Part shown: positions 38,600 to 64,000 of the stretch, piece by piece
How the letters are laid out: every line of letters starts with the position of its first letter
Position numbering within the stretch: the stretch's first letter is position 1
DNA from: Ostreococcus lucimarinus
Lineage: Eukaryota
Reading direction: 5' to 3' (one strand)
NCBI GenBank assembly: GCA_000092065.1
Contig: CP000586.1
Length of the DNA: 64,000 nt
Position numbers and translations under genes: made by a program
Notes under the pieces: generated by a model
Database searches by the model: none
What the model saw: the letters and a program-made list of their open reading frames with translations, nothing else
Told to the model about the DNA's origin: nothing

Positions 38600-40282
38600 C
38601 TACAGGGGACGGAACAAGCCAGCGAATGGCATGTCGGCCATCAACATCGCGTTTCTTTCCGAGAGAATTCCGTCGATTTCGTTGCGCAGGAGGTGGTCTT
38701 TTGCATTCTCCGCAGCTTTGTCATGTTGGCGCTGAAGGTACTTCATGACGCCGATGAACACACCTTCGCTCAAAGATGTTTTGTGCTCTTCGACGATTTC
38801 GTACAGAGCGTTAATGTGTTTTTTGTCTTCGTTTGCGACGGTATCAAGAGTTTCAAAGTAAATGATGAACTTCTCAACCTCGGTAAATGCGTTCTCTTCG
38901 TCGTTCTCAAGCATCTCCATAATCATTTCACCGTTGTCAACGGCTTCGATTAATTGTTCCTTCATCAAGCGAACAATGTCTGGATACTCTTTATAACCAT
39001 GCTCGACGACGTACTTGAGCATGTCCAGATTCAAATGATCTATGCAGCGATAGACGGTTTCCGGATAACCGGCGGGGGCGGCGGGGGTGAAAAACAAAAG
39101 ACCCCAATCCTCGTGGAGGGGTTGCACGAAAAGTGATTCAGGCAAGTCAAGCTCGAGCGAGAGCTCGACTGCAGTGCTCATTACTGCAGTTCTCATCTTT
39201 GGATCCGGGTGGTTAAGTCCCAGCCTGTCTCTATGAAGATGAAGATAGCGAAACATGAACCATCTTTCGAGGATGTCGCGATCGAGATCATCGTAACTTT
39301 GTTTGTTAATGTAGATTGAATCGTGCAGTGCGCGCATCGATTCAAACAAATGAAACAGAAAGGCGTCACCATGAGTCGCCACTGGAGAGTCGACTCGTCC
39401 CCAATGCGTTCGTTCGCGCAACCAATCCAGAAATTTGATGCGCGGGTCTATCTTCATAAGTTGTGCAAACTTCTCCGCGAGATACGTCGGACTTCCTTCG
39501 AGTTTTAGAGCCCCTTCGAAAACAATGTTTCGTCGTTTGTTCATCGCTTGCATATTTGGTCGTGTGAGCACCATCATGAACAAAAGTTCCGCGTCGGCCC
39601 GCCGATATTGAGGTGCATGGTTCACAAGTTCATCATACAACACCTTGAACAACTCGAACCTATCGTACCAATACGCGAGCCAACACGCCTCGAGGCGCGT
39701 TACGTAACCAGGTGCAAAACTCTTAAGTCCATGTTCTTTGATGGATGCTTCCAACCAAACAGGACGCCGCATATCTGCCTTGTTCTCGCCAACCCATGCC
39801 ACTATTTTTCTCATCGTTTCATCGTCGACGTGACGTTTCTCATACATCAATCGCCGCAACGCACTAGCCCACATCTCTCGTTTCGTTAGCAACGGTTTGC
39901 CCTTCAACTTACGCTTCACACATGACGCGCACTCCGCGACCAGCGCCGCCGCGAGCGTCTTACATTTCGTCTTGCCCAACTTATCCGCGCCTTCCTTTGT
40001 CAGCCGCGTGCACGGCGGCCGCTGCTCCGTCGACGACGACGCTCCAGTCTGCTTTACACCCTTGGACGCAGACGTCGACGCTTTAGTCGTCTTCGCCGCG
40101 TCTTCACCTCGTCGTGCGTTCGATTTCTTCGGCGGCGGCACATTTAAGATCGGATCGTGGTCTACGCTGAGCCCGTTGAGTCCTCTTCGCGCCATCAAGG
40201 CTTGGATGACACGAAGCGTGCACTCCCTGCAGTCGCACATCGGCTGATACATGCCCTCGCCCGCGCCAGGTCGTCCGGACAT
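38600..40282 (-). CDS. Unknown-family protein B, tandem paralog of A: basic N-terminus, Cys motifs (MCDCRECTL; CKTLAAALVAECASCVKRK), large helical domain, 560 aa
   Basis: The track ORF 38600..40693 starts at GTG and would overlap the Piezo stop. In-frame ATGs at 40282, 40252 and 40240 were confirmed. C-terminal similarity to A (VMKYLQRQHDK vs IMQFLKRLHDE; INALYEIVEEHKTSL vs LHVILQLFEAHKETF). Confidence 0.6.
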   Translation of the reverse strand: MSGRPGAGEGMYQPMCDCRECTLRVIQALMARRGLNGLSVDHDPILNVPPPKKSNARRGEDAAKTTKASTSASKGVKQTGASSSTEQRPPCTRLTKEGADKLGKTKCKTLAAALVAECASCVKRKLKGKPLLTKREMWASALRRLMYEKRHVDDETMRKIVAWVGENKADMRRPVWLEASIKEHGLKSFAPGYVTRLEACWLAYWYDRFELFKVLYDELVNHAPQYRRADAELLFMMVLTRPNMQAMNKRRNIVFEGALKLEGSPTYLAEKFAQLMKIDPRIKFLDWLRERTHWGRVDSPVATHGDAFLFHLFESMRALHDSIYINKQSYDDLDRDILERWFMFRYLHLHRDRLGLNHPDPKMRTAVMSTAVELSLELDLPESLFVQPLHEDWGLLFFTPAAPAGYPETVYRCIDHLNLDMLKYVVEHGYKEYPDIVRLMKEQLIEAVDNGEMIMEMLENDEENAFTEVEKFIIYFETLDTVANEDKKHINALYEIVEEHKTSLSEGVFIGVMKYLQRQHDKAAENAKDHLLRNEIDGILSERNAMLMADMPFAGLFRPL

Positions 40283-40533
40283 CGACCTTGTTCGTTGCCA
40301 CGAGCCACGGCGCGCGAGGCGCGAGACGCGAGGCGCGACGTGACGGGGGGGTGCACGAGCGTTTCTGAGGAGTTGGCGACGAGACTGGACGGCGTCGCCG
40401 CGGCGCGGCGACCTTTCGTGCGTCGTGCGATCGGTAGATTGGTGTTGGCTAATGAAATAATCTATATTTACATGTGCTACAGTGCTACAGGGTGATGACG
40501 AAGATCCGTCGAACGCGCACGCAGGGCGCGCGC

Positions 40534-47652: not shown

Positions 47653-47862
47653 CACCCCCCACCACACGTCTCTCTGCACCCGCGTCAGCGCGTGCGTATT
47701 CTTTCGTCCCTCGTGCACGCGTTCGATCGCGAACGCCGTCAAGAATCCAAAACTCTGTAATCGACATGGTGTTCACGATGATGGATTCGTCAGTCCGTCG
47801 TTTCGTCCGGTTTTCTCTCTCGCGCGCGCGTCGATTCGCGTCGGCGCGTCCACGCGCGCACC

Positions 47863-49329
47863 ATGATCGACGGTCGCTGTTCCGCGGCGTGTATGCTCAC
47901 GGCGACGACGAGCATGACGCTCGACATCGCCGCCATCGGGTCGACGCCCATGGCGCGTTGTGACGCGCTCGGCGCACACGCGCGCGCGCTCGACGGACAC
48001 GCGCCGTTCGCGCGCGGCGAAGCGGTCGACGCGAGGCGCGCGCCGATGCGCGCGTCGGCGTCGGCGGCGACGGCGGCGACGGCGCCGCGCGCGACCGCGA
48101 GGCGCGCGCGAATCGCGAACGCAAAGGCGCGCGGGACGACGACGACGACGCGCGCGTGCGTGAACTCGCCCGAGGGCGTGTTGGCGGCGCTGGTGTGCGT
48201 GGGGACGTGCGCGGGAGTGTTGGAGAAGCGCACGCGCGTCGGGGCGCGCGTGTCGGGGCCGGTGCTGGCGATGGCGAGCGCGAGCGCGCTGGCGAGCGCG
48301 AACGCGCTGCCGGGCGCGAGCGCGGCGTACGAGGCGGTGTGGACGACCGTCATGCCGAGTGGGGTGGTCTTAGCGTTGTTAGCGAGTGGGAAGGCGCTCG
48401 TGGGGAAGGGATGGACGGGGGCGGGTGAGGACGTGGCGAAGGCGTTCGTCGTCGGCGCGTGCGGCACCGTCGTCGGCACCGCGGCGGCGTTCGCGGCGTG
48501 CGGACGCGCACTCGGTACGCACGGAGCGAAGATCGCGGGGTGTTTGTGCGCGAGCTACATCGGTGGCAGCTTGAATTTTGCGGCGACGGCGCAGGCGTTG
48601 GACGTGGTGAACGCGGGAGGGAAGGCACTGTTGACTGGCGCGATGGCGGCGGACAATCTCGCGATGTGCGCGTATCTTGCGGCGCTCTTCGCAATTAAGA
48701 CTTCGGGGCCGAGTGAGGAAGAAAGATCGAGGGAGGTTGAGAGCGGCGAACGAGTTTTGAGTGGTGTCACGGCGGCGTCCGCATGCGCATCGCTCGCGAT
48801 GGCGTTGATTGTTTTGGAATTGTCGCGTCTCGTCGCCGCCGGATTCGGCGCGCCCAGTTTATCGCTGGGCGTCGCGTGCGTTTTGGCGCCCATCGTCTCG
48901 ATTTCGGCGAGCACGATCGCTCGGACGTCAAAATCTGAATCAAGGAATTTATCCAGTATTTTGGCGTTTTCTGGATCGCAACCGATGAGCGAGGCGCTCA
49001 TGCTCTTGTTTTTCGCTACGCTCGGCGCCATGGTGGATTTGCGCACAATTTTTGCGACGCTCTCGGGCGGCGCTATGTTGCCATTCATCGCGATTCTTCT
49101 CACAACACAACTTGTGTTCACTCTGCTTGTCGGTCACAAGTTATTGAAGATCCCATTGTGGGCCGTGCTCGTCGCGGCGAACGCGAATGTGGGCGGACCA
49201 GCGACCGCCGCAGCGATGGCCGCAGCGCGCGGATGGCGTCAAGCCTTTGCACCGGCGGTGGCCACGGGGATATTCGGTTATTCGATCGCGACTTTGATCG
49301 GCGTCGCGATAGGAATTTTTTTAGCGTAG
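47863..49329 (+). CDS. Polytopic membrane protein with a transit-peptide-like N-terminus (possibly DUF819/YjcL-like), 488 aa
   Basis: ATG at 47863 confirmed. After ~110 aa of Ala/Arg/Thr-rich leader there are about 10 hydrophobic helices. The DUF819 assignment is from memory and is tentative. Confidence 0.55.
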   Translation: MIDGRCSAACMLTATTSMTLDIAAIGSTPMARCDALGAHARALDGHAPFARGEAVDARRAPMRASASAATAATAPRATARRARIANAKARGTTTTTRACVNSPEGVLAALVCVGTCAGVLEKRTRVGARVSGPVLAMASASALASANALPGASAAYEAVWTTVMPSGVVLALLASGKALVGKGWTGAGEDVAKAFVVGACGTVVGTAAAFAACGRALGTHGAKIAGCLCASYIGGSLNFAATAQALDVVNAGGKALLTGAMAADNLAMCAYLAALFAIKTSGPSEEERSREVESGERVLSGVTAASACASLAMALIVLELSRLVAAGFGAPSLSLGVACVLAPIVSISASTIARTSKSESRNLSSILAFSGSQPMSEALMLLFFATLGAMVDLRTIFATLSGGAMLPFIAILLTTQLVFTLLVGHKLLKIPLWAVLVAANANVGGPATAAAMAAARGWRQAFAPAVATGIFGYSIATLIGVAIGIFLA

Positions 49330-49401
49330 TAGTGGGGCGTGTAATAGTTAGCATTAGTGTTCGTTCGTATTCAAACGGGATCTACTATACAGAGGATTAA
49401 T

Positions 49402-52400
49402 TTACGCCGTCAGCGCGGCGCGCTCCGCCTCGACTGCGGCATTACTCTCTTGCTGTTGAAGCTGCGCGAGTTGGTTGGCGCCAACCTTGAATGCGCCCGG
49501 ATTGATCGCCACTGTCTTCGTGGTGTTGTTGGTCTTGTAAATACCGACCAATCTATCCGCGAGCTCGAACATGTTATTGCGCAGAGAAATGATCACAAAC
49601 TGAGCGTTTTTCGTTCGCTCCTTGATGTAATGTCCGACGATGGAAACGTTCTTGAAATCCAACGCAGCGTCAATTTCGTCCATGACATACAACGGTGTGG
49701 GCTTGTAGTGATGCAAAGCAAACACCAATGCGAGCGATGAGAGCGTCTTCTCACCACCGGATAAATTGGCGATGTTCTTCCAGCTCTTCTTCGGCGGGCG
49801 CACGCTGAAAACAATGCCCTCGGAGAAGGGATCGAGCGAATCTACCAGCTCAAGTTCGGCATCACCACCGAGAGTGATCATTTGATACATCTCTTTGAGT
49901 TTGAGCGAGATAATATTGAAACCATCCATGAACTCGTTGAGTCGTTTTTGTCGTAGCTTGTCGTACGCTTCACGAGTGTTATCACGCTCCTCCGTCGCCG
50001 CGCTCAACTCAGCGGCGCGCTCTTCGTACTCCTCCGCTTTCTTCGCGTACGCTTCGATAGATGACATGTCAGGCTTTGCAGCCGCGAGTTCTTCTTCTAA
50101 AATCACCGCCTTTTCTTGCATCTCGTCCGTCGTATGTTGCTCGAGCTCTTCGTCGTTCAAGAGTTCAGGCACTTCACCCTCCGCGTAAAGCGACGTGCGC
50201 TCCTTCGTCACCTTGTTGATTTCTTTATTCCAGTGCTTTTCCTTGTCTTTATTCTCCTTCTGGACGACGCTGAGGTCGTCTAATTTCGCTTGAATATCAA
50301 CTTCAACGCCTCGGATGGTGCCGACAATTTTCATTATTTCATCGAACGCTTTCTGTGCCTCGGAGAACTCGCCACTCTTCACTTCAAGGAGCTGCTTAAG
50401 TTCGCCTTGCGATTCGAGTACGGCGGCGGCGCCGTCTTCAAGTGCCTTGAATTCAGCCTCGTGATTCTGCATATTAGCCTTAATTTGCTCAACTTCGGCT
50501 TGATTGGCTTCGATTCCCTTGGAGAGACGAGCGGTCGTCCCTTCGTGAGACTTGGCCTTGGCGCGCTTCTCGGTGACGGCGTCAGACGCTGCAGCGATGC
50601 CGGCGGTGAGATCCTTGACTAACGCTCGCTGCCTTTTCAAGCCATCACCGCCAACGTTATCCATCTTTTGTTGCAACTTGGCTTCCTTCTGTTTAAGAGC
50701 GGCTGCACCCGCCGTGACTTCATCCAACACAACCTTGGCCTTTTCAACTTCTTTGTCGAGTCTCTTGAGCTCGTCCGCGTCGTTCTTACTCGCGTCATGC
50801 GCCGCTTCGAGTTCAACCAAACGAGTGGACAAATCAGCAGCCTTGGCTTCGGCTGCGTCAAATTCAGCCTTCAACTTGGGAATCATGCGTTCGATTTTGT
50901 TGACGATCGCCTCTGCATCGCGAGCCTCCTGGAGAGATTTGAGCGCCACCTGACGCGAGCGTTCGTAGAGTTTTCCAGCTTGTTCAAGCTCCACCTCTGC
51001 CATTTTAATCTCTTTCGCCACTTCGGCGGCATCGGTAATCACTGGTGCTTGATTTCCAACGCGCATTCTACCGGTACGCGGCTTGGAACCGCCACCACTC
51101 AACGTACCGCTGGTCTCAAACAGTTGACCCTGAATGGTAACCACTCGACGGCGCTTCTCGCCGTGAGCCAGGCGCGAAGCTTGTTCGAGATCTTGAGCCA
51201 CTAAAGTATCACGAACTCCGAAGTAGAAAGCGACCGCAAAGCGTTCTTCCGCGGGTTTGATCAAATCGATCAGGCGCGGCGCGTTGTCCGGGTTGGAAAC
51301 CTTTTCGTTCATCTTAGAAAGAAGATGCTTCTGTCTGTCGAGGGCAAGAAAGTTGCCCCGACCGAGGTTGTGCTTCCGAAGGTACGACACACAAAGCTGC
51401 GCATCGGACGTGGTTTCAACCAAGATGTGATCAAGAGGTCCACATGCAGTCGACACCGCGACATCATATTCTTTGTCAATAGCCCCAAGATCACCGAGAC
51501 GACCGAGAACACCCTTGAGCGCGCCAGCGGCTTGAGCGTCAAGCAACGCTTGCACCATCGCATTCTGACTCTTCTCCGTCTCGGCCGTCGAACGACGTTG
51601 TTCGAGCTTACCACGAATCTCACGAGTCTCAGCTTGCGCAGCGGCTTCTTTTTCTTTCGCATCGGCTTCCATTACTCGAGCCTTATCGGCGCGCGCGCGC
51701 TCTGTCTCCAACGTCGCTTCCTCTTCGCCGATGGTTTTCTTCAACTCGATAGCCTTCACGCGTGCCTCCTTTTGACCCTCACGTGCCGCGTTCAAAGACT
51801 TTTCTGCATCAGCGTGTTTTTCAAGGAGAAGGGCTCGCTCAGACGTAGCGACGTTGAACGCCCCCTGAGCCGCGGCGAGCTTACCTTCCCACGGCGCCAA
51901 ATCCTTTTGCGCTTGGTCGAGTTCGCGGCCCACCGCTGCGAACTCATCTTGCAAGCTAGCGACGAGAGCATCCAAAGCAGCCTCTTCTTTGTCGATTCTT
52001 GCCTCGAGATCTGCCTTTTTTGCTTCCAAAACGGGCACTTCTTTCTCAATCGCCGCGCATTCCGCCGCCATTTTCTGCTGCTTTTCCGTGTCCGTGGCAA
52101 TTTTCGTGTTGAGTTTCTTCACCGACGCCTTCATGTTTTTCAACTCCTCTCGATACTTGGCATCCTTCAGCTCGAAGTCGGCAAAGTCTTTCACACTCTT
52201 GTCGAAATCAGCTTGAATCTTGGACAATTCGTCAGCAATTTCGCCCTTACGGCCCTCTGCAGCCTTCAACGCGTCCTCGTGCTCGGAGTGTTTCGCGCGC
52301 TCTTCTTCGAGCTTTTGCGTGAGCGCATCCTTGTTTTCTTGAATCTTGACCAAGTTGGTTTGCGTCTCTTTGATGAATAGTTGGTACATCGTCGATCGCG

Positions 52401-53384
52401 TAGACAAGAGCTCTTTTTCTTTCTCTAAGAACGCCTCCGCCTCCGCCTTGACGATGGCGAGCGCATCCTTCTCACCCTCGACTAACTTCAATCGGTTTAC
52501 CATGACATCGCGCTGCTCGTTCAACTCCTCCAACTTCTTGCTCGCCTCTTCGATGGGCTCGACGTATTGCAAAGTACCGATGATGTCTTCCAAGTATTCC
52601 AATAAGCCTTCATCGCCCGGCGCCGCCCCTTTCGGCTTCATCATGGAAATTTGTTCAACTTCCCCTTGCAAGATGAGGAAACGGTTGTTGTTTAAATCCA
52701 CATCCTTCGACTTTAACAACTTTGTCACCTCTGTGAACGAGCTCGTCTTATCGTTCACGAAGTATTTGCTCGAGTTATTCCTGTACGCCTCGCGAGAGAT
52801 GACGAAATCCGAGTTCGGCACGATATCGTATCCTTCTTCGTCGTCCACGTGATCGATGATTTCGTGAAAGTGCACCTCCACACGCGCGTGCTCCAAATTT
52901 CTGAAATCTGTAGAGTTGTGAATCAACTCGCTCACCTTATTCAATCGCAACTGTTTCGCTCGTTTACCGAACACAAACATCATCGCGTCGATCACGTTCG
53001 ACTTCCCGCTCCCATTCGGGCCGACGACGGATGAAAAACTCTGCTCGAGCGAGTCGCGCGCGGCGCGTCAGTCCCCCGTCGTCGCGACGCGCGAACCAGT
53101 CAAATCGAACTCGAGCGCGTCGACATCCGCGCCCTCGCGCGCGTCCGAGCGCGCACCTTATGAAACGGTCCCACGTGTTGCGCCCCCGCGTAGGATTTAA
53201 AATTCTCCAGCACCATCTTCTTGATCGCCAATCGCGGTTTCCGCGCTCGTCGCTTCGCGTCCTCGTCGTCCTCGCGATGTCGTTCCCGTTCGTCCGTCTC
53301 CGTCGCCGTCGCGTCCTCGCGCGCGCGCGCGTCGCTCGCGGGCGCGTCATCGTCGCATTCGCGCGCGCCGTCTTCCGCCGTCAT
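49402..53384 (-). CDS. SMC4: Structural maintenance of chromosomes protein 4 (condensin SMC4); join(49402..53040,53157..53384) on the minus strand, ~1288 aa
   Basis: Exon 2 is collinear with SMC4 (VVGPNGSGKSNVIDAMMFVFGKRAKQLRLNKVSELIHNS.., long coiled coils, hinge, C-terminal LSGGEKTLSSLALVFALHHYKPTPLYVMDEIDAALD). The track ORF starts at an internal GTG (Val). The conserved N-terminal strand KMVLENFKSYAGAQHVGPFHK lies in a separate upstream ORF (53100..54173) and ends AAG|GTGCGC at 53157. The acceptor ..GAGCAG| at 53041 gives ..PFHK|SFSSVVGPNGSGKS, restoring the canonical Walker A context. The start ATG is at 53384 (MTAEDGARECDDD.., an acidic leader). Confidence 0.8.
53041..53156 (-). other. 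Predicted 116-nt intron of SMC4 (GTGCGC...CAG), phase 0, immediately before the P-loop
   Basis: The donor GT (53156/53155) follows the K codon 53159-53157. The acceptor AG is at 53042/53041. Exon 2 then begins at 53040 with AGT (Ser). All positions were checked base by base. Confidence 0.7.
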
Positions 53385-53389
53385 CGCGC

Positions 53390-53394
<5 letters not shown>

Positions 53395-53427
<33 letters not shown>
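53395..53427. repeat. (CGT)11 trinucleotide repeat in the shared SMC4 / MT-A70 promoter and 5' UTR region
   Basis: The cgtcgtcgt... run lies immediately upstream of the SMC4 ATG (53384) on the minus strand, where it reads (ACG)n. Confidence 0.9.
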
Positions 53428-53430
<3 letters not shown>

Positions 53431-53729
53431 GGTGTGTCATCCGTCGCCCGACCAACGACCGTTCCGTTCCCCTCTGTCGATGGCGCACGTGTCGCGCGGA
53501 ATACGGGGTTTCGTACTTTTTTTTTTGAAAATTCAAACGCCGTCGACAGGTGCGTCGATCGCGCGGCGCGCGCACTTGGACGCGCGCGCGCGCGGACGAG
53601 GCGACGGACGAGCGACGCGCGGTGCGGTGCGCGAGACGGACGCGCGCGCGAGCGAACGAACGCGGCGGGAACCGCGCTCGAAGACGCGGGAAGACGCGCC
53701 AGCGGTCGAGGCGTCGACAGCGCGCGACG

Positions 53730-55070
53730 ATGGCGAACGAGGACGGCGATGTCGCCGCGGGGAGCCGGCCGAAGCGCAAGGCGAGCGCATCGTTGCGAGC
53801 GCGGACGTCGCGAGGGAAACAAGCGCCGTCGAGCGCGCACTACGTGGGATACGTGCAAGACGACGAGACGCCAGAGATGATTATGAAAAAGTTTGAAGAG
53901 ATGGAACGGATTCGACAAGCCACCAAGGCGCAAGTCGGTGAGGATGGTGATAAGGAGAACAAGGAAGGCGCGACAAACGGTGCGGGTGGAGACGCGGTCG
54001 GGACCAACGGCGACGAGCACGAAGGGTTGGACGAGGAACAGTTGAAGGAGTTGTTCAAAAATACGTCTACGTTTACGGTGAAGGAGGCCGTGATGGATTC
54101 TAACGCGCTTTTCGGTGATATGAGGATCGCGAACGAAGATGGGATGTATTTCTCGGACGATGAAGAGTTGCAAGATGAATTCTGGGAGGCGCTGACCGGT
54201 AAGAAGCGTAGAGGTAAGAAATCCAAGGGGCCGAGAGTGCCGAGAGCGCCGAGAGCGCCGCGCGAACCAAAGGCGGCGCAGTCACACATGATCACCGCGT
54301 ACAATAGCGACCAAGGCTTGTTCTTGCGCAAGAAGAAGTTTGTTGATCCTTTCGAGCCTGTCATCATCAAGGTCCCGGCGCACCCGATTCCAGTGAGCTA
54401 TGGACGAGTAATTCAGCCGTACGAACCAAAATCGGTGCGAGAGGCGAAACTGAAACAAGTTCCCGATTGCGTGCACATGCAAACGAACATCAAGAAGATG
54501 GAATATGAATCGCTCGGTAAGGACTATTTAGGTGTGCTCATGAACCCGCCGTGGGATATTGAAGATTCCCCAGATCGCGGCGACGTGACGTTGGAGGACA
54601 TCGAAGCCATTCCGCTTGAAAAACTCACGCCACTCGGTTTCATCTTTATTTGGGTTGAGAAGGAAAATTTGTCCAAGGTTTGCGACATCATGGACCGAAA
54701 GAACTTTGTCTACGTAGAGAACTTGACGTGGGTACAACTCAAGCCGAACAACACGATCGTTGAGTCCTCTGCGCGCTATCTTGGTCGCTCGCACAGAACA
54801 ATGCTCATCTTCAGACGAGACGTTCGCGACAAGCGCTTCATTGAAGGGAAGAAGATTGAGTTGCGACACCAACGTAACTCGGATGTGACTCTCGATATTG
54901 TGCAGACCACGAAAACTGGTCGACGTGTTGTCCCTGAGCACGTGTACAAGTCCATCGAAACTCTTTTACCGACGGCGTACGAACCTGGAACGCCTGGTAA
55001 GCTCCTCGAATTGTGGGCCGAACCGGGCGCGCGACGCGCGGGTTGGACTTCCGTGGCGGATACTCCTTAG
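53730..55070 (+). CDS. MT-A70-family N6-adenine methyltransferase-like protein (NPPW catalytic motif), 446 aa
   Basis: GVLMNPPWDIED...LTPLGFIFIWVEKENL..CDIMDRKNFVYVENLTWVQLKPNN..GRSHRTMLIFRR is collinear with the MT-A70 catalytic domain (DPPW..[31 protein letters not shown]). There is no CCCH zinc-finger region. The track start 53550 is GTG. The first ATG is at 53730 (MANEDGDVAAG). Confidence 0.75.
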   Translation: MANEDGDVAAGSRPKRKASASLRARTSRGKQAPSSAHYVGYVQDDETPEMIMKKFEEMERIRQATKAQVGEDGDKENKEGATNGAGGDAVGTNGDEHEGLDEEQLKELFKNTSTFTVKEAVMDSNALFGDMRIANEDGMYFSDDEELQDEFWEALTGKKRRGKKSKGPRVPRAPRAPREPKAAQSHMITAYNSDQGLFLRKKKFVDPFEPVIIKVPAHPIPVSYGRVIQPYEPKSVREAKLKQVPDCVHMQTNIKKMEYESLGKDYLGVLMNPPWDIEDSPDRGDVTLEDIEAIPLEKLTPLGFIFIWVEKENLSKVCDIMDRKNFVYVENLTWVQLKPNNTIVESSARYLGRSHRTMLIFRRDVRDKRFIEGKKIELRHQRNSDVTLDIVQTTKTGRRVVPEHVYKSIETLLPTAYEPGTPGKLLELWAEPGARRAGWTSVADTP

Positions 55071-55091
55071 TCTCTAGATCTTTGTTGTTAT

Positions 55092-55988
55092 TCAATCCCT
55101 TTGGATACGTCTAATTTTTCTTCCGCTACTGCTAATCGTCGGTTTGGACAGAACTAATTCCTCTTGAGCTCTGGAGTGATTTACGTCGCCCCGCTGCCGT
55201 CTCTTCCGCCTATTTGTGGTGATGTTGCGTGGCTTTGACTCTTCTTTCGCCATCGCACGCTTTGTCTGTGCCTTCAGGGACGCACGATACATCAAACTTT
55301 CCTCTGTTTGCACAATAGTTCGCTTCGACGGCCCTCTGCAAATACTTCGCGAGTCGCGCAAAAACGTCTCCAACTGCTGCTTGCCGGCGCCGAGTCGCTT
55401 TGCCTCGCGCACTTTTTCATCCTCATCCACCGATTTTCTAGACAACCCTTTGGCCCAAGATGGAAGTTTTGGATTGAACCACATATTTTTACACTCTCGA
55501 ATCACGCTCAACGATCGCGGAACCTCGTTTGCGTTGCGATTGACGCGAATAATATCGCGCATTCGAGTCTTCAAATCCGTTCCAATAAAATGGTGCTCGC
55601 TCGCGTACATATACGCGACTGCAGTGTCCTCCAATCCTTCGGCGAATTGCTTCCAGCCTTTCAACGTCGTTCTAAAATTCTCACCCACATTTAAGCACCA
55701 AATACGTTTCCGTCGCAACACGTCGAGGAGCAGCATCAACTGCTCGTCGTACACCCCGTCTTCGAAGTTTTGCAAGTACAGCGCTTCGATTTTCGTGTTT
55801 TCCTTCAGCGCCTCGAGCACCGCATCGATCACTACCGGCTTAGCCGTGCTAGGGACGTATCGCTTCAACCTCAAGACCTTACCTCCGGCGTCACACGCGA
55901 GTGTGTTGTCGCGTAGGCGCGCGATGAAGTCGACGAAGGCGGGCGACTCGAGAACGTTCGAGCCAGATTCTCGCCGCTTCGCGCGCAT
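55092..55988 (-). CDS. Hypothetical protein with an RNI-like leucine-rich-repeat flavour, 298 aa
   Basis: ATG at 55988 confirmed. Ordinary composition. Weak LRR-like periodicity (KIEALYLQNFEDG.., IWCLNVGENF..). Basic C-terminal tail. No confident family. Confidence 0.5.
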   Translation of the reverse strand: MRAKRRESGSNVLESPAFVDFIARLRDNTLACDAGGKVLRLKRYVPSTAKPVVIDAVLEALKENTKIEALYLQNFEDGVYDEQLMLLLDVLRRKRIWCLNVGENFRTTLKGWKQFAEGLEDTAVAYMYASEHHFIGTDLKTRMRDIIRVNRNANEVPRSLSVIRECKNMWFNPKLPSWAKGLSRKSVDEDEKVREAKRLGAGKQQLETFLRDSRSICRGPSKRTIVQTEESLMYRASLKAQTKRAMAKEESKPRNITTNRRKRRQRGDVNHSRAQEELVLSKPTISSSGRKIRRIQRD

Positions 55989-56172
55989 CGCTGGGCGATG
56001 TCGGCGAACCGCGTGACGCTGTGTCTGTTTAGCTCACCCGCGGTCGTCGGATCGCGAGCGATGCCGTCGAAGAATGAGGCAGAGGCGGTGATACTCGCGG
56101 CGAAGAATCCAAGCCGTCTGGGCGACACGCGCCTCCAATGGATGGTGTAGTTTTCTTTTAATTACATCTCGT

Positions 56173-57726
56173 CTAGCGCTCGCACGCGAATTGTGGAGAA
56201 AATTTTCTATCTGTGCACCCAGTCACGTGCGCCTTATCATCCCAACGTCCGGCGAACGGGACGATAGTGTCGTAAAACAGACACGTCTCGCGCATGTCCT
56301 CCTCGTCCGAGTCGTTGGAGATCCAAGCCCAAGCTCTGAACGCGTGGCTAGGTTCGAGGGCGTATTTTCTACAATCTACCGGCGACTTGGCGGTACCAGT
56401 ACCGAGCGGGGTCGCAAAATCTGCCTGGTCCAGTCCGATTAAGCCGTGCACGATGTTGGGGTTGGATGAGCTCTCGTCAGGGACGAGCACCTCGTCGGAT
56501 TCCTGATGCGCCACGGGTTCTGGGTTGGTCGGTACTGGCGACCGCACATCCGAGGGCTGATTAACAGGTTCTTGTACCGGCTCAGCCACCTTGGCCGGTG
56601 TCGTTGAGACCTCTGGTTCTGGGGCGGGGATTGCGCTCGTCGCGTTTTCGTCCGCGCACGCATGCAACGGCGAGACATCGGAAGCGGTGCACCCAGTGAT
56701 GAGCGTCGGCTCCTCGTAGCCAGCAAATGGCACGATTTCTTTGTAGAACAAGCATGTCGATCGCAATGAGAGATCATTCGCTTCCGAGTTAGCGTAAGCG
56801 AAAGCCACATAATTGTGCTCAGCGGCGAAATCTCTGCATTCGCCCGGACCGCTCGTCGATTGCCCTCTACCGAGCGGCGTTTCGTAAGCAACATTCAAAC
56901 CAAGCATACCGCGAACGATGTTCGGGCGAGTCTTCCGCACTTGCGGTGCGGGCTCAACTACAGCTTCCACCTCCTCCGTCTTCGGCACCCCCGGCTCGGA
57001 CACTGCGGTAGCTACCTCGTGCTTGGCCGCGGGCTCACCCGTCGCCGCCATCGCCGTGCTCTCAAGCTTGCATCCGTTCGCTGGAGATACATCGAAGCTC
57101 GTGCAGCCCATGATGTGCGCGTGATCTCCCGGGTACCCCTCAAAGGGCACTACTTCGCGATACATCAGACACGAGTTTCGCAACCGCTCGATGTCCGAGT
57201 ACGAATTCACCCACGCCCACGCCACGTAGTGTTCCTTTGCGTTGTCCGCGTACTCTCGGCACGCTCCGGGGGAATCAGCGTTACCGACCCCAGCCGGCGT
57301 TTCAAACGCGCTCATTTTCGGGTCAATGAAACCATTCACTATATTCGGATGATTACCGCGCACTTTCGCGTACGCCGCGGCTTCTTCCGCCGTCAGCGGC
57401 GGTTTGATTTGCTTCAACATCTTCACTTTGGTGTTGGATTCCGGGGCGACGACGTCGATCTTGCCCGACGTTGCCGGAGCGTGACGGTGTTGTGGCACCG
57501 ACACCACAGTACTCGTCGCGCTCTGTTCCGCGCACACGCACTTCGGCCCGTCGTCGCATCCCAAGTCCACGACCGCGCCATCGCCATCGCCGCGACCGAG
57601 GGCGAGACCCACGCCGACGCCGACGACTAACGCGGTCACGCCGACGACCACGGGGCGCTTGTACCACGGCACCGCAGTTGATTTGTGGGGGCGAGACAGT
57701 ATGAACGCTTTCTCTTCGTCCGACAT
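56173..57726 (-). CDS. Type II membrane protein with three tandem ~110-aa four-cysteine repeats (PAN/apple-like?), 517 aa
   Basis: ATG at 57726 confirmed. N-terminal cytosolic segment, then a transmembrane helix VVVGVTALVVGVGVGLAL. Three repeats each read .PNIV.G.I......TP.G.G....PG.CR.(Y/F)A......(V/F)A(W/F)A(W/Y)..S........CL(M/F)Y..(V/I)VPF.G.......(I/V)TGCT.....SP...C. Confidence 0.65.
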   Translation of the reverse strand: MSDEEKAFILSRPHKSTAVPWYKRPVVVGVTALVVGVGVGLALGRGDGDGAVVDLGCDDGPKCVCAEQSATSTVVSVPQHRHAPATSGKIDVVAPESNTKVKMLKQIKPPLTAEEAAAYAKVRGNHPNIVNGFIDPKMSAFETPAGVGNADSPGACREYADNAKEHYVAWAWVNSYSDIERLRNSCLMYREVVPFEGYPGDHAHIMGCTSFDVSPANGCKLESTAMAATGEPAAKHEVATAVSEPGVPKTEEVEAVVEPAPQVRKTRPNIVRGMLGLNVAYETPLGRGQSTSGPGECRDFAAEHNYVAFAYANSEANDLSLRSTCLFYKEIVPFAGYEEPTLITGCTASDVSPLHACADENATSAIPAPEPEVSTTPAKVAEPVQEPVNQPSDVRSPVPTNPEPVAHQESDEVLVPDESSSNPNIVHGLIGLDQADFATPLGTGTAKSPVDCRKYALEPSHAFRAWAWISNDSDEEDMRETCLFYDTIVPFAGRWDDKAHVTGCTDRKFSPQFACER

Positions 57727-57880
57727 CTCGCGGACGTGAACGCGACGCGCGCGAGTGTGCAGCCAGGCAGATCCAAATTTTTAGTGTTGAGGCGATTCGA
57801 AGGAAGGACGGAAGCGAGGAGGGAAGGACGCTACTGGGATATATTATTGAGTGCGGCTACGACGCGAAGAATGACGTTAA

Positions 57881-59062
57881 TCAAATCCACGGGAACAAAA
57901 AGTACTCGGAATAGAACAACGCCCAGATATCGCGGTAGTACTGTAGAATGGCATCGCGCGAAAACTTGGCGTTTTCGAGCGCCTTGGTCTTGACGATGAG
58001 GAAGGAGGCGAAGAGGGCGTGGCCGCCGATCATCAAAGGTTGGATGAACCACGTAGGATTCTTCACCGAAAGCGCGATAGCGAAGATGTAGTTTGCGAGC
58101 AACAACCCTGATCCAATGTAAGACACCTTCTTCACCCCGAGACGCGTGGAAAACGTTTCAATCTTGTACTTTAAGTCACCCTCGATGTCCGGCAAGTCCT
58201 TGGTGATGGCGATGACGGTGGCGAAAGTCGTGACGAAGATGGTGATGAACGTAATCGCAGGACTCCACACAAAGGGTAAACCAATCGCAGCTCGAGTGGC
58301 GTGGTACACGCCAAAGTTGAGCAAAAACCCACGCACGCAGGCGATGATGAGGAAAGCGGGAAGCGCGTACTGCTTCAAGCGCAACGGCGGCACGGAGTAA
58401 ATCGTGCCGAGGAACAAGCCAAAGCAGTACAATTTGGTGATCAAAGCTCCAAAGTTCGTGGCGACGATCGCCGCTCCGCCGAGCGCGGTGACGGCGCAGA
58501 ACGCCCACGCGGCGAACACGGAGAGTTCACCAGAAGCCACGGGCAAAAACGGCTTGTTCACCTTGTCGATGTCGATGTCATAAATTTGATTGATTCCGAC
58601 GATGTATCCATTCCCCATCAGCAGCGCCAACAGCCCTAACAACGCGCGAGGAACCAAATGCATGGAAATCATTTCCGGGTTCCCCATCAAAATCTTCGAC
58701 ACGATCGCCGTCGTACCGAGCAAAGTCCCTCGAATCGTGTGCGGACGCACGAATTTCCATATCGCCGCGCCGAGCGCGTTCAGTTTTCCAGTCTCCCCAT
58801 CCACGGTCGTCGACCGCGCGATGACGCGTCGTCGACGCATCGTCGCCGTCGCCGTCGTCGTCGCCGCCGCGTCGACCCCTCGCGCATCGATCGCGCATTC
58901 GAACCCACGCGCCGTGGACGACGCGCGCACCGTCACCGTCGCGCGTCGCGTCGCCCCGACGTCCACGCGTCGACGCGTCGCCGTCCGCCGCGCGCTCGAC
59001 CTCGCGGCGTCGCGCGTCGTCGTCGTCGTCGTGGTCGTCGTCGTGGCCGTCGTCGCGCGCAT
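57881..59062 (-). CDS. HST: Homogentisate prenyltransferase of the UbiA family (HST/VTE2 family; the motif favours homogentisate solanesyltransferase), plastid transit peptide, 393 aa
   Basis: [24 protein letters not shown] matches plant HST (NQIYDISIDKVNKPYLP) more closely than HPT. Multiple transmembrane helices and a second Asp-rich region (KDLPDIEGD). The track start 59122 is GTG. The first ATG is at 59062 ([23 protein letters not shown]..). Confidence 0.8.
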
Positions 59063-59240
59063 CGTCGCTCGAATCGTCGCGCGCGGCGCGGTGTGCGACG
59101 CCCGTCGCGGGCGACACGTCACCCGCCCGACCGCGGCGTTATCTAAACCCTAGTGAGTCCGCGAAATCTGAGGATAGCGCGGGCGTCCGACGGTGCGACG
59201 CCGCACATCGCGCCCCGGACCGTCGAAGCGCGCGAACGAC

Positions 59241-60107
59241 ATGAGTGTCATCGCGCACGCGCACGCGAGAGCGCGCGTCGATCGCACGCCCGCGGCGAGC
59301 GCGTCGCGGAACGCACGACCACGCGGGAAGACGATAAAGATGCGAGGGACGGACGAGAAGCGCGACGGCGCGGGCGGCGGTGGGTTGTTCTCGAGGGTGG
59401 AAAAGCTCGCGGAGAAGGTGGGAGTGTCGCTTGGACCGATCGGGATGACGTTGCAGGAGGGAGAGGTGAAGAAGAAGACGACGACGGAAGGCTCGAAGGA
59501 GGAGTCGTACGAACGACCGCCGAGCATCGCGAGCATGAACTCGGCGCAGTGGAGAGAAAAGTACGTCAAGACGGACGGCACGGTGGATTTATGGCTCGAA
59601 GACGATTTCAATATCGCCAGTCGCAAGGCGGGAGCGTGCGATGCGGACTCCTTGGTGAATATTGAAAACTACGCGTGGTCGGGGATGAAGACGACGGACG
59701 TCAACGCGCCCATTCGCAGCGTCAAAGTCACGGATCACGAGACTGGAGAAATGCTGGAGTTAGATGTGCCCGAAGGGCGGTACATTTTGTTCGAAGCTGA
59801 GCAGCAAGGATGGGTACTTCCGAACGCGTGTCGCATGGGCGGGTGCACAAAGTGCGCGGTGAAAATTAGCAAAGGCTCGTTGGAGCAACCCGAATCTTTG
59901 GGCCTATCCAAAGAACTCAAGGACCAAGGCTACGCGTTGCTGTGTGTCGCTACCGCGACGGAAGACGTCGAGTGCGTGACTCAGGACGAAGAGGAGGTGT
60001 ACATGAAGCAGTTTGGCAAATCTTTCGCCGAGATGGCGTTGGATAAAAACGCGAGCTCCGTGCTTCGCGACGATTTTGCGCTCGAAATCGCAGACATGGA
60101 CGAATAA
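59241..60107 (+). CDS. Protein with a C-terminal plant-type 2Fe-2S ferredoxin domain and a ~150-aa N-terminal domain of unknown type, transit peptide, 288 aa
   Basis: Cys ligand pattern CRMGGCTKC (C-x4-C-x2-C) plus ..GYALLCVA. The track start 59193 is GTG. The first ATG is at 59241 (MSVIAHAHARARVDRTPAAS). Confidence 0.7.
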   Translation: MSVIAHAHARARVDRTPAASASRNARPRGKTIKMRGTDEKRDGAGGGGLFSRVEKLAEKVGVSLGPIGMTLQEGEVKKKTTTEGSKEESYERPPSIASMNSAQWREKYVKTDGTVDLWLEDDFNIASRKAGACDADSLVNIENYAWSGMKTTDVNAPIRSVKVTDHETGEMLELDVPEGRYILFEAEQQGWVLPNACRMGGCTKCAVKISKGSLEQPESLGLSKELKDQGYALLCVATATEDVECVTQDEEEVYMKQFGKSFAEMALDKNASSVLRDDFALEIADMDE

Positions 60108-60162
60108 TTTTTGCATTAGCGGCTACAATTTTTTACACACATTCAATCTATATGTTTTGTTT

Positions 60163-63100
60163 CTAATTTTTCTCTTCGTCTCCTTCCCCAAAGTCGTCTT
60201 CAAGCTTCTTCCTTGGGCTCGTTTTCTCTGTCTCGCCTCTCTGCGCCAAGAACCGCGCGCGCGGCGACACCGCGGTGGGATCGCTCGGTGAAGGTTCTCT
60301 CTTCCCAGTAGGCGATCGAATCGGTGAAGCTTTCTTCGTTTTACTGATGAGCTCGGCGTGCATGGCATCGACGGTATCGAATACGCGCACTGGCTTAGGC
60401 TTTGGACTGAGCTTTTTCTTCAGCACCTTTTGCTCCTCGCGCGCCTTTTCAAGACGAAGTTTCAAAGCATCTGCGGCTTCTTCTGCCTTGATCGAATCGC
60501 GCACGTTATCGAAAATGGTCAAGAAATCGCTCACAACTCGAAGGATGTGAGTGGGATTATCTGGCTTGTACGGCTCGCCGTAAAATTCAGTCACCCGCTT
60601 CGCCGACTCGACTGCGCCGAGCGACAGTTCAGAAGCTTCCTTGAGTTTCTCATCCATGGTCTCCGCGAACGGTGCCATCTTCGCATGAAACGCTTTATGA
60701 ACCTCTTCGCCGAGAACACCCGCGGCATGTAGTATTTCATCCTTGACTTTTGTCAAACCGTCTTGTAACTTACCCAAATTCGCGGATGTCGTTTCGATTG
60801 AAAGCGCCGCCGCCTTCTTGACGACGGCGAGATCGGTGGAAAGATTACCGATTCCAGGCTCTGTCTTTACCAGTTCTTTGTAAACAAAGTGCAACAAAGA
60901 TGTCTTTCTATCCACAGCTTTGAAATCTTTCAGCCGAAGGAGCATGTCGAGTCTAAAACCAGACGCAGATCCACGGTACGAGCCAGTGTTCAAATGATTG
61001 CCGACAACTAAAACACCCCTCAAGACTTTTACGAAAAGAGTGCTTTCTCGCAAGCAATCCGACGCTTCGGAAAGTAATCTGTACTCACTAGTCACCTTCA
61101 ACAACGCGTCTGACGCGAGCGATTTGTACAGCAGAGAGTTTACCCGACCTTCGAGTCGTGGGATTTGCATGACGTGCATGAAATATTGCTCGACCGTCGC
61201 CAACTCTTCCTTTGCGCCCTTGTAATCCATTATGAGTGTGATCTCTTTTGACGTCGGCACGGTCGAAGATATGACTTCAAGTTGCTCAGACTGCAAAACT
61301 TCGTCATCCATGGCGAGTAAAGCATCCTTAATCCGATCGAAAGGCATTCTCAAACCAGCGAGCTGAATGCTGATGTTGAGTGAGCGCTTTTGATCAATCA
61401 AAGTGACGCTCTTCTGCTTCTTCGCCGCCGCCTTGGCCTTAGCTTTCGCTTCTTCGATAGCAAATAACTGATCGAGGCTTTCAAGATTCAATGACAATTC
61501 GTCCTTGTTGGCATTCTCCCACACAGTGCCTCCGATGGCGCCTCCTTGAAGTTTCTCCCAGTGTAACATTTTCACCTTCTTGCGAGCCTTTTGAGCCCAC
61601 GCGTGCGCGTTTGCGATGGCAGCAATGCCCATCTTTGGCGGTACTGGTGGTGCTGCAGGAACACTGGATTTGAAACCTGGAGGAGGTGGAGGAGGCGGAG
61701 GCGCGGGTGCGCTTACACTCGAAGATTTGAACCCAGGAGGAGCCGGTGGCGGCGGAGGCGCAGGAGGCGCGACGCCTGTCGCACGTTTGAAACCAGGAGG
61801 CGCTGGCGGAGGTGGAGGTGCCGGTGGAACTGTCGCTTTTGAAACTGACGATTTGAAGCCAGGTGGAGGTGGTGGGGGTGGCGGAGGCGGTGCGACTTTC
61901 CCAGAAGCCTTCGGTGGAGGAGGAGGAGGAGGAGGAGGAGGAGGAGGAGGAGGAGGAGGAGCCACCAACGGCGATGTCTTTGATGAAGGAGCAGGAGGAG
62001 CAGGAGGAGCAGGAGGAGCGTCTAGCGCTTTAAGAACAACTGCTTTGGCTCCTCTTCCTAAGTGATCAAGATCCAACTTTGCCTTTGTCTCTGACAGCTT
62101 TGATGGCGGTGGCGGCGGCGGCGGCGGCGGCGCGTCAGAAGCTTGCTCTTGAAGAGACTCCATTTGCGCGGCAAAACCGCTGACCGGACTAACATCGCCA
62201 AGCAATGCTTTTGCAAGCTTACTATCAGCTTTCAAGACAGTCCCTGGATCCACTTCGTCCGCGATTTCTATGTCCTTCATCAATTTGATGAGCTCTTGCG
62301 TAAAGTTATTCCGCGACGCAACCTCTTCCAGTCCGCGAATTTGATTCAATTTCTTCGTCTTGACTAATGTGGCAAACTTCAGAAGTGTCTCTATTTCTTC
62401 ATTAACCGACACGGAACCCTCTGTGCTCTCATCACGCGCATCGGACTTTCCGGTGACTTGCACCAAATTATTCAGCGCTTCGCGCAGCGCACCGTCATTA
62501 TACAACGCAAGCAGATACGCCTCCTGCTCAGGCGTCAAGTCTACTCTCGGTACCGCCACTGGTGTTGCTATTGGTAAATTGACGGTAACTAGCGGAGAAT
62601 CGCCGCCAGAAAAACCGTCACCGCCAGAAAAACCGTCACCGCCAGAAAAACCGTCACCGTGCGCGACTTGCACCACCTCTTGAGGCGTGAACGCCGCATG
62701 TTCTTGCTCCGATTCCTCATCAAAATAAGCATCATCGTCGTTCTCGCTCAAGTAGTCATCTTGTCCGTACTCATCGTCGACGTAGTCGTCATCATCGCGA
62801 TATTTGTCTCCGAGGAGCGCCTGATGACTTAATTGAGCCGAGGTGCTTTCGGCGAGCCTCGTCCGAATTTTTTGCAGCGTTGAAGAAGATGCTGGCGAGC
62901 GAGCCTTACCCCCAGCTTTAAGAGTGGAGTGTATGAGAGGAATGACATCGTGAATTTGATCGTTCGCCACATGCACTGCAGAAGCGAGTACGGTAGGTAC
63001 ATCCGCTCGCGACGCTGTGCGCCTGTGAACGCGCCCACGTATCGCGCCACGCTCACCCCTGCTCGCCGCTGGTTTCCTTCTAATAATCACTGGCACTTCA

Positions 63101-64000
63101 TCCTGATCCGATTCATCCACTGGCACGTCATCCTGGCCCACGTAAGCTTCACTCTCATCGAGTTCGGACGCAGATTCGTCACTCGGCTGCTCATCGCTCT
63201 CGAAGTCTTCCAAGTCCTCGCCCGACTCCGAAATCGCCGCGCCCGCATTGTCTGAGAGATTCTTGACAGCTCGTCTCGTTCCAATCCTTCCACCCTTAGC
63301 TCGCTTGCGTAACTTTTTCCTGTGTGAAGGTTCCATTTCGGCTTTTTCTCGTTCGACTGGATCCCACTGAAACATCGGTGGAAAAACAGACGGCTGCCAA
63401 AAATCGGTGCTGTGCTCCTGGAGCCAGGGCGGAAGTTTTGTTTCGCTGAGTAAAATCCGCGACTTTGGTTTGCGCTCGATCTTAGACGCCGCAACACTGC
63501 GCAAAATATCAGTTGGATTGAAGCGAGACGCTGAGGACGTCGTCTCCCTGACATGATCGAATGTCGATTGTCCTCGCGTTGAACTTGAAAATGAAATCGT
63601 TTCGTCCGCGTCCTCGTCTTCACCCGGCATCTGAACCTTAAGTCGCGCCTTCGGATCGACGAACACTGTTTGCTTCTCGTATAGGATCAAGTAACGAAAT
63701 TCTCGCAGCAGAGTTCCAACCAGGCGAACCGCGTACTCGTTGTGTTCCCTCGACGTGTTGTTTCGCGCCGTCCGAAACACTCTCGGCGCAAACATCTCAG
63801 ACAACGTACATAACGGTTCATCTTCCTCTATGCTCGCCGTGCATCCACGAGTGACGACGAATCCAAACAGCGTCCGGTGTAAGAGCTCCGTTAACTCCGT
63901 CAAGACCTCCATTCGAGGCTTTGGCACCCGTTCAAGAAGAACTCTGAGAATGTACAGCCTCGACTCGTAGTGCTCCGTCTTGATCGCCTGCACGAACGCC
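60163..64000 (-). CDS. Formin (FH1 polyproline + FH2 domain), C-terminal ~1276 aa; the gene continues beyond the window end
   Basis: FH1 domain: PPPPPPPPPPPSK.., APPAPPAPPAP, PPPPPPPPPPPPPPPPK, PPPPPPPPPPGFK. FH2 domain: KMLHWEKL..LDQLFA..VGNHLN..LLHFV. The topmost in-frame start at 63993 is GTG, so the N-terminus lies outside the window. Confidence 0.85.
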   Translation of the reverse strand, partial: AFVQAIKTEHYESRLYILRVLLERVPKPRMEVLTELTELLHRTLFGFVVTRGCTASIEEDEPLCTLSEMFAPRVFRTARNNTSREHNEYAVRLVGTLLREFRYLILYEKQTVFVDPKARLKVQMPGEDEDADETISFSSSTRGQSTFDHVRETTSSASRFNPTDILRSVAASKIERKPKSRILLSETKLPPWLQEHSTDFWQPSVFPPMFQWDPVEREKAEMEPSHRKKLRKRAKGGRIGTRRAVKNLSDNAGAAISESGEDLEDFESDEQPSDESASELDESEAYVGQDDVPVDESDQDEVPVIIRRKPAASRGERGAIRGRVHRRTASRADVPTVLASAVHVANDQIHDVIPLIHSTLKAGGKARSPASSSTLQKIRTRLAESTSAQLSHQALLGDKYRDDDDYVDDEYGQDDYLSENDDDAYFDEESEQEHAAFTPQEVVQVAHGDGFSGGDGFSGGDGFSGGDSPLVTVNLPIATPVAVPRVDLTPEQEAYLLALYNDGALREALNNLVQVTGKSDARDESTEGSVSVNEEIETLLKFATLVKTKKLNQIRGLEEVASRNNFTQELIKLMKDIEIADEVDPGTVLKADSKLAKALLGDVSPVSGFAAQMESLQEQASDAPPPPPPPPPSKLSETKAKLDLDHLGRGAKAVVLKALDAPPAPPAPPAPSSKTSPLVAPPPPPPPPPPPPPPPPKASGKVAPPPPPPPPPPGFKSSVSKATVPPAPPPPPAPPGFKRATGVAPPAPPPPPAPPGFKSSSVSAPAPPPPPPPPGFKSSVPAAPPVPPKMGIAAIANAHAWAQKARKKVKMLHWEKLQGGAIGGTVWENANKDELSLNLESLDQLFAIEEAKAKAKAAAKKQKSVTLIDQKRSLNISIQLAGLRMPFDRIKDALLAMDDEVLQSEQLEVISSTVPTSKEITLIMDYKGAKEELATVEQYFMHVMQIPRLEGRVNSLLYKSLASDALLKVTSEYRLLSEASDCLRESTLFVKVLRGVLVVGNHLNTGSYRGSASGFRLDMLLRLKDFKAVDRKTSLLHFVYKELVKTEPGIGNLSTDLAVVKKAAALSIETTSANLGKLQDGLTKVKDEILHAAGVLGEEVHKAFHAKMAPFAETMDEKLKEASELSLGAVESAKRVTEFYGEPYKPDNPTHILRVVSDFLTIFDNVRDSIKAEEAADALKLRLEKAREEQKVLKKKLSPKPKPVRVFDTVDAMHAELISKTKKASPIRSPTGKREPSPSDPTAVSPRARFLAQRGETEKTSPRKKLEDDFGEGDEEKN
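61916..61960. repeat. (GGA)15 trinucleotide run encoding part of the formin FH1 polyproline tract (minus strand CCT/TCC)
   Basis: Read directly from the sequence. Confidence 0.9.
62604..62657. repeat. Perfect 18-bp tandem triplication (ccgccagaaaaaccgtca x3) inside the formin CDS
   Basis: On the minus strand this encodes GDGFSGGDGFSGGDGFSGGD. Confidence 0.9.

Follow-up and report, generated by a model that had tools for sequence, protein, structure and literature searches.

A fast-evolving, putatively membrane-anchored protein of Ostreococcus lucimarinus with three PAN-like four-cysteine modules and relatives in giant viruses

A 64,000-nucleotide stretch of Ostreococcus lucimarinus DNA (contig CP000586.1, assembly GCA_000092065.1; hereafter the window) contains on its minus strand a single ATG-initiated open reading frame (ORF) of 517 codons without an intron, established from the ORF list and its translation. 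The product, referred to here as the PAN-like protein, is built around three tandem four-cysteine modules with a PAN/apple-type fold (Table 1). The window, taken to be nuclear DNA, is gene-dense and has a GC content of 58%. An identical protein is present in public collections, 173 near-identical sequences occur in metagenome collections, and the only name that a cluster look-up attaches to the relatives is 'hypothetical protein'. The start Met (MSDEE...) is common to the full-length three-repeat orthologs.

Twelve of the 15 Cys residues fall into three sets of four, the other three being residues 57, 63 and 65. Repeats 1 and 3 share the spacing C-x29-C-x21-C-x10-C and repeat 2 has C-x27-C-x20-C-x10-C, close to the C-x30-C-x22-C-x10-C pattern proposed in an earlier note on this locus. 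As the same note had claimed, the tandem repeats align well outside the Cys positions: they are pairwise 43-46% identical, share 31 invariant columns over about 100, and give local alignment scores of 196-220 against 25 +/- 4.5 for shuffled sequence (z about 40). The repeat length of about 110 amino acids (aa) given there is too large, the folded unit comprising about 93-98 aa; the period is 141-155 aa because low-complexity linkers of 46 and 63 aa part the units. Among the shared motifs listed earlier, PNIVxG is genuine and present in all three repeats, whereas the remainder had been slightly mis-transcribed and read VAWAW / VAFAY / RAWAW, CL[MF]Y..[VI]VPF and [MT]GCT. Module 2 (EEPTLITGC) lacks the Asp and His that, by family column frequencies, usually stand before the third Cys. 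Module 3, which closes the protein (...FACER-stop), is the most conserved of the three and is predicted to be the membrane-distal one. A profile scan of the window found no further copy of the module.

Outside the repeats, the most hydrophobic stretch of the protein lies at about aa 24-44 (19-residue Kyte-Doolittle mean 2.4), and the full-length AlphaFold2 (AF2) model places a helix at residues 26-42, in agreement with the single transmembrane helix after a cytosolic N-terminus that had been proposed. This segment is preceded by a K/R-rich flank and followed by RGDGDG...DD; the charge bias across it is weaker in some orthologs. An N-in orientation is predicted because the hydrophobic segment is long and looks uncleaved, basic residues stand before it and acidic ones after it, and disulfide-bonded modules need an oxidising compartment. 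In a 7-ortholog alignment, tail columns E4, E5, I9, L10, W21 and Y22 are invariant, and the stretch E4-E5-x3-I9-L10 (window 57697..57717) is similar to acidic dileucine sorting signals and would point to trafficking under regulation or to endocytosis. In the stalk, about 15-20 residues outside the anchor, lies a juxtamembrane Cys cluster, C57/C63/C65 (C-x5-C-x-C; window 57532..57558, minus strand), whose CxC is aligned in 6 of 7 orthologs. The cluster makes the ectodomain Cys count odd in this species and is thus a possible site of intermolecular disulfide formation or of lipid or metal attachment; that the CxC could mediate covalent dimerisation is speculation. Linker 1 is not alignable between lineages; a sequon scan finds one N-x-T site, N361, in linker 2.

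Table 1. Features of the PAN-like gene and its product (window coordinates; CDS, coding sequence; HMM, hidden Markov model; i-E, independent E-value; pLDDT, predicted local distance difference test)
Feature	Position	Strand	Basis
Complete single-exon CDS, 517 aa + stop	56173..57726	-	ORF list, translation, public identical protein, orthologs
N-terminal tail, aa 1-23, predicted cytosolic	57658..57726	-	7-ortholog alignment
Hydrophobic transmembrane segment, aa 24-44 (RPVVVGVTALVVGVGVGLALG), predicted signal anchor	57595..57657	-	hydropathy, AF2
Juxtamembrane stalk, aa 45-124, 80 residues, disordered, low-complexity	57355..57594	-	pLDDT 22-47
PAN-like module 1, aa 125-219, Cys 156/186/208/219	57070..57354	-	HMM i-E 1.6e-41; pLDDT 66-84
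Linker 1, aa 220-265, 46 aa, Ala/Glu/Val/Pro-rich, net charge -3, disordered	56932..57069	-	composition, pLDDT 22-35
PAN-like module 2, aa 266-357, Cys 297/325/346/357	56656..56931	-	HMM i-E 1.6e-35; alignment
Linker 2, aa 358-420, 63 aa, Pro/Glu/Val-rich, net charge -11, disordered	56467..56655	-	composition, pLDDT 25-33
PAN-like module 3, aa 421-517, Cys 452/482/504/515	56176..56466	-	HMM i-E 3.7e-44; AF2 pLDDT 93

The gene is a real, conserved and fast-evolving protein-coding gene. A word-indexed search of 5.8 billion proteins returned only eight cluster representatives, all unnamed or 'hypothetical' and none with Pfam domains. The full-length relatives are 36-99% identical, and each has the tail, the anchor and the three repeats. 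A search in related algae, which the earlier note had recommended, yielded three-repeat orthologs in conserved synteny: on the contigs of three of them the order Fer2 (ferredoxin-domain), UbiA, PAN-like gene, (MT-A70-like), SMC and DUF819 is kept. An 87%-identical ortholog (L007) differs by 41 synonymous and 54 non-synonymous changes, against neutral expectations of about 23 and 72. For the protein as a whole the corresponding ratio of non-synonymous to synonymous substitution rates (dN/dS) is 0.40; the modules have values of 0.15-0.48 and the linkers of 0.6-0.8, so that it remains below 1 in every segment, and ortholog length differences are in frame and confined to the linkers. It could be argued that the ORF is spurious, or its repeats an artefact of GC-rich DNA, in that long overlapping ORFs abound in GC-rich genomes and the opposite strand here has several. 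What effectively refutes this explanation is that at least four lineages have full-length orthologs in which the Cys and motifs are invariant, that synteny is conserved, that synonymous changes are in excess and that indels are in frame, together with the confident module fold and 145 remote relatives described below.

Between lineages the PAN-like protein is 40-43% identical, as against 57-91% for the flanking syntenic genes (UbiA core 90-92%, SMC 81-85%), making it the fastest-evolving gene of its syntenic block. Across lineages, a repeat resembles its positional counterpart more closely than it does the repeats at other positions, most clearly in the C-terminal module (56% vs 40%), and the triplication is therefore old.

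Each module adopts a PAN/apple-type fold, as the earlier note had tentatively suggested from the Cys pattern, although the canonical PAN pattern is not kept. An AF2 model of module 3, built on an alignment of 21 repeat copies, has a mean pLDDT of 93 and a predicted template-modelling score of 0.86, with the order strand, helix, three strands (E-H-E-E-E); this agrees with the hairpin-loop fold that characterises PAN/apple domains, about 70-90 residues in which an alpha-helix packs against a curved antiparallel beta-sheet. The full-length model contains three confident beads (pLDDT 65-89) with the same order of elements and disordered connections. Among solved structures, Foldseek ranks factor XI (FXI) and kallikrein first, with weak scores (E 0.025-0.17, template-modelling (TM) score 0.42-0.56). 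When 177,635 PDB sequences were searched with a family profile of 61 diverse members, the only match was kallikrein, at apple domain 2 (E 0.037), and a profile restricted to the orthologs found no match there. Pfam models do not recognise the module: the whole protein has no match at E<=1, 61 isolated module copies have no PAN or WSC match at E<=10, and the curated thresholds of PAN_1 (PF00024), PAN_4 (PF14295) and PAN_2 (PF08276) are not reached. Two relatives carry Pfam PAN_1 or PAN_4 matches, and in both the match lies off the module (P0120, match 231-278, modules 136-222 and 418-498; P0146, match 284-330, module 350-444).

Apple domains contain the disulfides C1-C6, C2-C5 and C3-C4. In the alignment to kallikrein apple 2, which is marginal (E 0.037) and covers the N-terminal half of the module only, Cys1 falls on apple C2 (EEC) and Cys2 on apple C5 (NNCLL), the C3 position is Ala (93% of 162 family copies) and the C4 position is a conserved Tyr/Phe. 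The residues at C3 and C4 leave only one of the two core PAN bonds possible, and the pair that defines the PAN core (helix C-x3-C; apple C2-C5 plus C3-C4) is not reproduced. Nor is the module a canonical apple domain with six Cys and a C1-C6 clasp, since it has four Cys, none of them N-terminal to the helix. From these correspondences we infer that Cys1-Cys2 retains the C2-C5-type bond, that the other core bond and the terminal clasp have been lost, and that Cys3-Cys4 probably closes a new 11-residue C-terminal loop. Natural variants in which Cys are lost in pairs were not found among the 162 copies, the apparent losses being misalignments.

The module thus differs from its best-known structural counterparts in several respects. 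The apple domains of factor XI and plasma kallikrein (PF00024 PAN_1, SMART APPLE) have six Cys rather than four, an N-to-C clasp (C1-C6) in place of the predicted local Cys3-Cys4 loop, and only 9-15% identity to the module; they are packed into a disc in soluble proteases, whereas the PAN-like modules are strung on long linkers behind a membrane anchor. The apple/PAN lectins of apicomplexan micronemes (Toxoplasma MIC4, Sarcocystis SML-2, Eimeria MIC5) are secreted or partner-associated and keep the canonical PAN Cys pattern; no sequence-level relationship to the module is detectable and their sugar-binding residues cannot be mapped onto it. Proteins with WSC domains (the Wsc1 sensor, Kremen1 and the N-terminal domains of fungal copper-radical oxidases) have eight Cys, a type I topology and a signalling tail. 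A mechanosensor resembling Wsc1, in which a Cys-rich head with the PAN fold, carried by an extended membrane-anchored stalk, would signal stress at the surface to the cytoplasm, is very improbable here: WSC membership (PF01822) requires eight conserved Cys and an HMM match, whereas the module has four Cys and no Pfam WSC match; Wsc1 is a type I protein with a signalling cytoplasmic tail of about 90 aa, whereas the tail here has 23 aa and is N-terminal; and Ostreococcus-type cells have no wall.

The module belongs to a wider, unannotated family. When a repeat profile was run exhaustively with HMMER against 1.84 billion cluster representatives, 145 proteins passed E<=1e-3, of which 43 also passed E<=1e-10 and 9 passed E<=1e-30. 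Many of them carry 2-4 module copies, and all four Cys are present in 157 of 162 full-length copies. The family consensus is CRQxAL...GKYVAWGyRn..HPd...rNTCFLYt..f.PfxGN..D..H.TGC..PGEKV..GC, and the defining pattern, over about 70-98 aa, is C-R-x2-A ... [YF]-x-A-[WFY] ... [RK]-x-[TS]-C-[FL]-[LFM]-[YF] ... G ... G-C ... x10 ... C. The three window repeats fit this definition (i-E 1e-35 to 1e-44 against the profile) and form, with the other algal modules, a divergent subgroup with an extra N-terminal PNIVxG...ETPxGxG strand region. A second word-indexed search, made with the family alignment, returned 6 small proteins only. In a domain scan of 123 members, the module was accompanied by F5/8-C discoidin, Ricin-B, TSP1, collagen, B-lectin, PA14/GLEYA and canonical PAN domains, a vocabulary of extracellular adhesion and carbohydrate binding. 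Two GC-rich relatives with an anchor and three copies (P0086 and P0093) look, from their composition, like Micromonas-type orthologs. In a four-module relative (P0082), aa 1-200, N-terminal to the modules, contain three copies of another unannotated repeat of about 60 aa, with the pattern G-N-T/A-x-YLDRH-x-I/V-x-C ... L-K/R-LVR ... DAQG ... Y-x-Y-x-C; comparison of this protein with Pfam found nothing.

By analogy with PAN, apple and WSC modules, and given the lectin and adhesion partner domains of the relatives, a binding role at the surface is the most likely function. The protein is probably a type II membrane protein whose three PAN-fold modules form a multivalent cell-surface receptor or adhesin for a glycan or protein ligand. 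A cytosolic tail of 23 residues, followed by a signal-anchor helix of 21, would set it N-in, C-out, leaving the long chain extracellular or lumenal. The disulfide-stabilised modules would then be arranged as beads on flexible, acidic, Pro-rich linkers, with the most conserved module outermost, at the far C-terminal tip. Within each module, Cys1-Cys2 would tie the helix to the central strand and Cys3-Cys4 would close the C-terminal loop, the second core PAN disulfide being replaced by the conserved Ala and aromatic residue. The protein would bind its ligand multivalently at the cell surface, as adhesin or receptor, and EExxxIL may direct adaptor-mediated sorting or endocytosis.

Several observations weigh against this proposal. 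A dN/dS of 0.4 and 40% identity between lineages amount to weak constraint outside the core. The likeness to solved apple domains is remote (TM 0.47-0.56, E >= 0.025), and the putative disulfide pairing derives from one marginal profile alignment (E 0.037) limited to the N-terminal half of the module. The algal modules lack Arg50, His54 and partly Asn61, and module 2 also lacks Asp78 and His81; with several family-conserved residues missing, their ligand may differ from that of the viral-type modules. In the putative sorting motif an Ile takes the place of the canonical Leu, and P0086, the GC-rich relative that is probably from Micromonas, lacks the motif. Furthermore, an EExxxIL-type tail and type II topology also fit Golgi, endosomal or vacuolar residence. 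Golgi residents are typically type II proteins with a short cytosolic tail, and the invariant EExxxIL resembles the [DE]xxxL[LI] signals of endosomes and vacuoles, so that the modules could instead face the lumen and bind cargo or glycans, as in a sorting or quality-control receptor. Such an endomembrane residence is possible but unlikely, because flexible acidic Pro-rich spacers, tandem modules and TSP1, collagen, discoidin and ricin partners are typical of exposed surface proteins, and because the viral homologues are unlikely to be Golgi receptors.

Nucleocytoplasmic large DNA viruses, among them viruses that infect this group of algae, share the module family with the algae themselves. Many of the 145 family members are encoded on giant-virus contigs, one of which is prasinovirus-like. 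Among predicted viral structures, the best match is an uncharacterised protein of Bathycoccus sp. RCC716 virus 2 (E 3e-6, TM 0.72), accompanied by five unnamed entries that we take to be other prasinovirus proteins; matches of this prasinovirus type, such as UniProt A0A7S6NYG7 (Bathycoccus sp. RCC716 virus 2), span E 3e-6 to 1.5e-4 and TM 0.69-0.75. They are followed by 'PAN/Apple' proteins of marseilleviruses, mimivirids, pandoraviruses and others. True sequence relatives of the module are encoded on metagenomic giant-virus contigs, often behind an N-terminal membrane anchor; the viral proteins differ from the algal one in usually carrying 1-2 copies fused to other domains, and are functionally uncharacterised. 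A scan of viral contigs with a tighter module alignment gave 3 loci, and one with the viral ORF gave only itself, counts that do not represent the true viral frequency of the module. One viral contig of 148 kb (L004) encodes a 546-aa protein with one module copy between two hydrophobic segments, and a small single-module protein (P0203) is encoded beside Pox_VLTF3 and D5 primase-helicase genes.

A further giant-virus protein of 364 aa (L005, 5140..6234, plus strand, on IMG/VR contig 3300033183_000482) has an N-terminal Cys-rich hydrophobic anchor, a Gly-rich middle of about 230 aa without a Pfam match and one module copy at its very C-terminus. Other genes on this contig encode TFIIB, a TBP-like protein, a C5 DNA methylase and, with glutaredoxin, the small subunit of ribonucleotide reductase. 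The contig comes from the same metagenome as an algal contig (L002) that carries an ortholog of the PAN-like gene.

These occurrences raise the alternative that the algal protein acts at the virus interface, as a receptor, co-receptor or decoy in prasinovirus infection, with viral proteins of the same module either binding it through homotypic PAN-PAN contacts, of the kind formed in factor XI apple-4 dimerisation, or competing for the same surface ligand. Prasinovirus proteins and then giant-virus 'PAN/Apple' proteins as the best viral structure matches, the anchored IMG/VR protein ending in the module, the family member beside Pox_VLTF3 and D5 primase-helicase, and the rapid divergence of the gene relative to its syntenic block, as expected for an arms-race locus, are all consistent with it. 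A shared domain, however, does not in itself speak for interaction. Viral copies have the main-family pattern (CRQ.AL...YVAWG.R...HP...NTCFLY...D..H.TGC...GC), with Arg50 and His54 present, whereas the algal ones are divergent, and hence nothing points to recent exchange with the algal gene. Moreover, dN/dS stays below 1 in every segment, and the syntenic region around the gene is well conserved and ordinary in GC, in contrast to the outlier chromosome of Ostreococcus, which has poor synteny and is linked to virus resistance. A literature search combining PAN/apple with Ostreococcus or prasinovirus found no paper on this protein and none that connects such a protein with infection. A role in infection is accordingly regarded as rather improbable. 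The broader form of the idea, in which an undescribed four-Cys module common to a Mamiellales-type surface protein and the giant viruses of these algae lets viral proteins engage or mimic the algal protein as receptor, co-receptor or decoy, is likewise doubtful. A multivalent surface receptor or adhesin is the reading preferred here.

The gene directly upstream of the PAN-like gene, at a distance of 154 bp, encodes a UbiA-family prenyltransferase (57881..59122, minus strand) whose Thr/Arg/Ala-rich N-terminal extension resembles an organelle-targeting peptide. Immediately downstream lies an ORF of 298 aa without a Pfam match (55092..55988, minus strand). It is also present in a same-species contig (L001, 6284-7180) and is absent from the syntenic spot in L008, where the MT-A70-like gene follows the PAN-like gene directly; L002 has an unrelated 248-aa gene in its place. 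The 298-aa ORF looks like a lineage-specific insertion in an otherwise conserved block. Beyond it is a candidate MT-A70-like adenine methyltransferase (53550..55070, plus strand) with a weak N6_N4_Mtase match and an NPPW motif. Its L008 ortholog has a weak match to PF05063 (MT-A70), identity between lineages is 77-83%, and translation probably begins downstream of the listed GTG, which is followed by an Arg-rich leader. In L008 the DUF819 gene is followed by a very large gene (17516..19596, plus strand) with Piezo cap and anchor domains, a Piezo-type mechanosensitive channel. Across 1..64000, the GC content of adjacent 2-kb windows ranges from 0.50 to 0.70, as seen for instance at 10-12 kb (0.699), 24-26 kb (0.698) and 42-44 kb (0.496). 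Scans of the whole 64 kb for tRNA genes and Rfam families found neither.

Tandem PAN-fold modules in surface and adhesion proteins, and giant viruses encoding PAN/apple proteins, are already known. New here are a sequence family that Pfam models miss, with a disulfide layout that appears to differ from the canonical one; the occurrence of this family in a membrane protein that is conserved, evolves rapidly and is specific to this picoalgal group; and its presence in both picoalgae and the viruses of those algae. Libraries currently miss a module that recurs in giant-virus proteins beside lectin and adhesion domains, so that its inclusion would give an annotation to quite a few viral and protist proteins now listed as 'hypothetical'. 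In naked picoalgae such as Ostreococcus the plasma membrane is directly exposed to seawater, grazers and viruses, and to our knowledge their surface proteins are almost all uncharacterised; the gene provides a conserved, abundant and fast-evolving candidate surface receptor whose fold is confidently modelled. Were the viral link not functional, the protein would be an ordinary PAN-type adhesion or receptor protein. Should the link prove functional, prasinovirus host recognition would be opened to direct testing, and if the algal protein is engaged or mimicked by viral proteins, it would be a concrete host-side candidate for prasinovirus adsorption.
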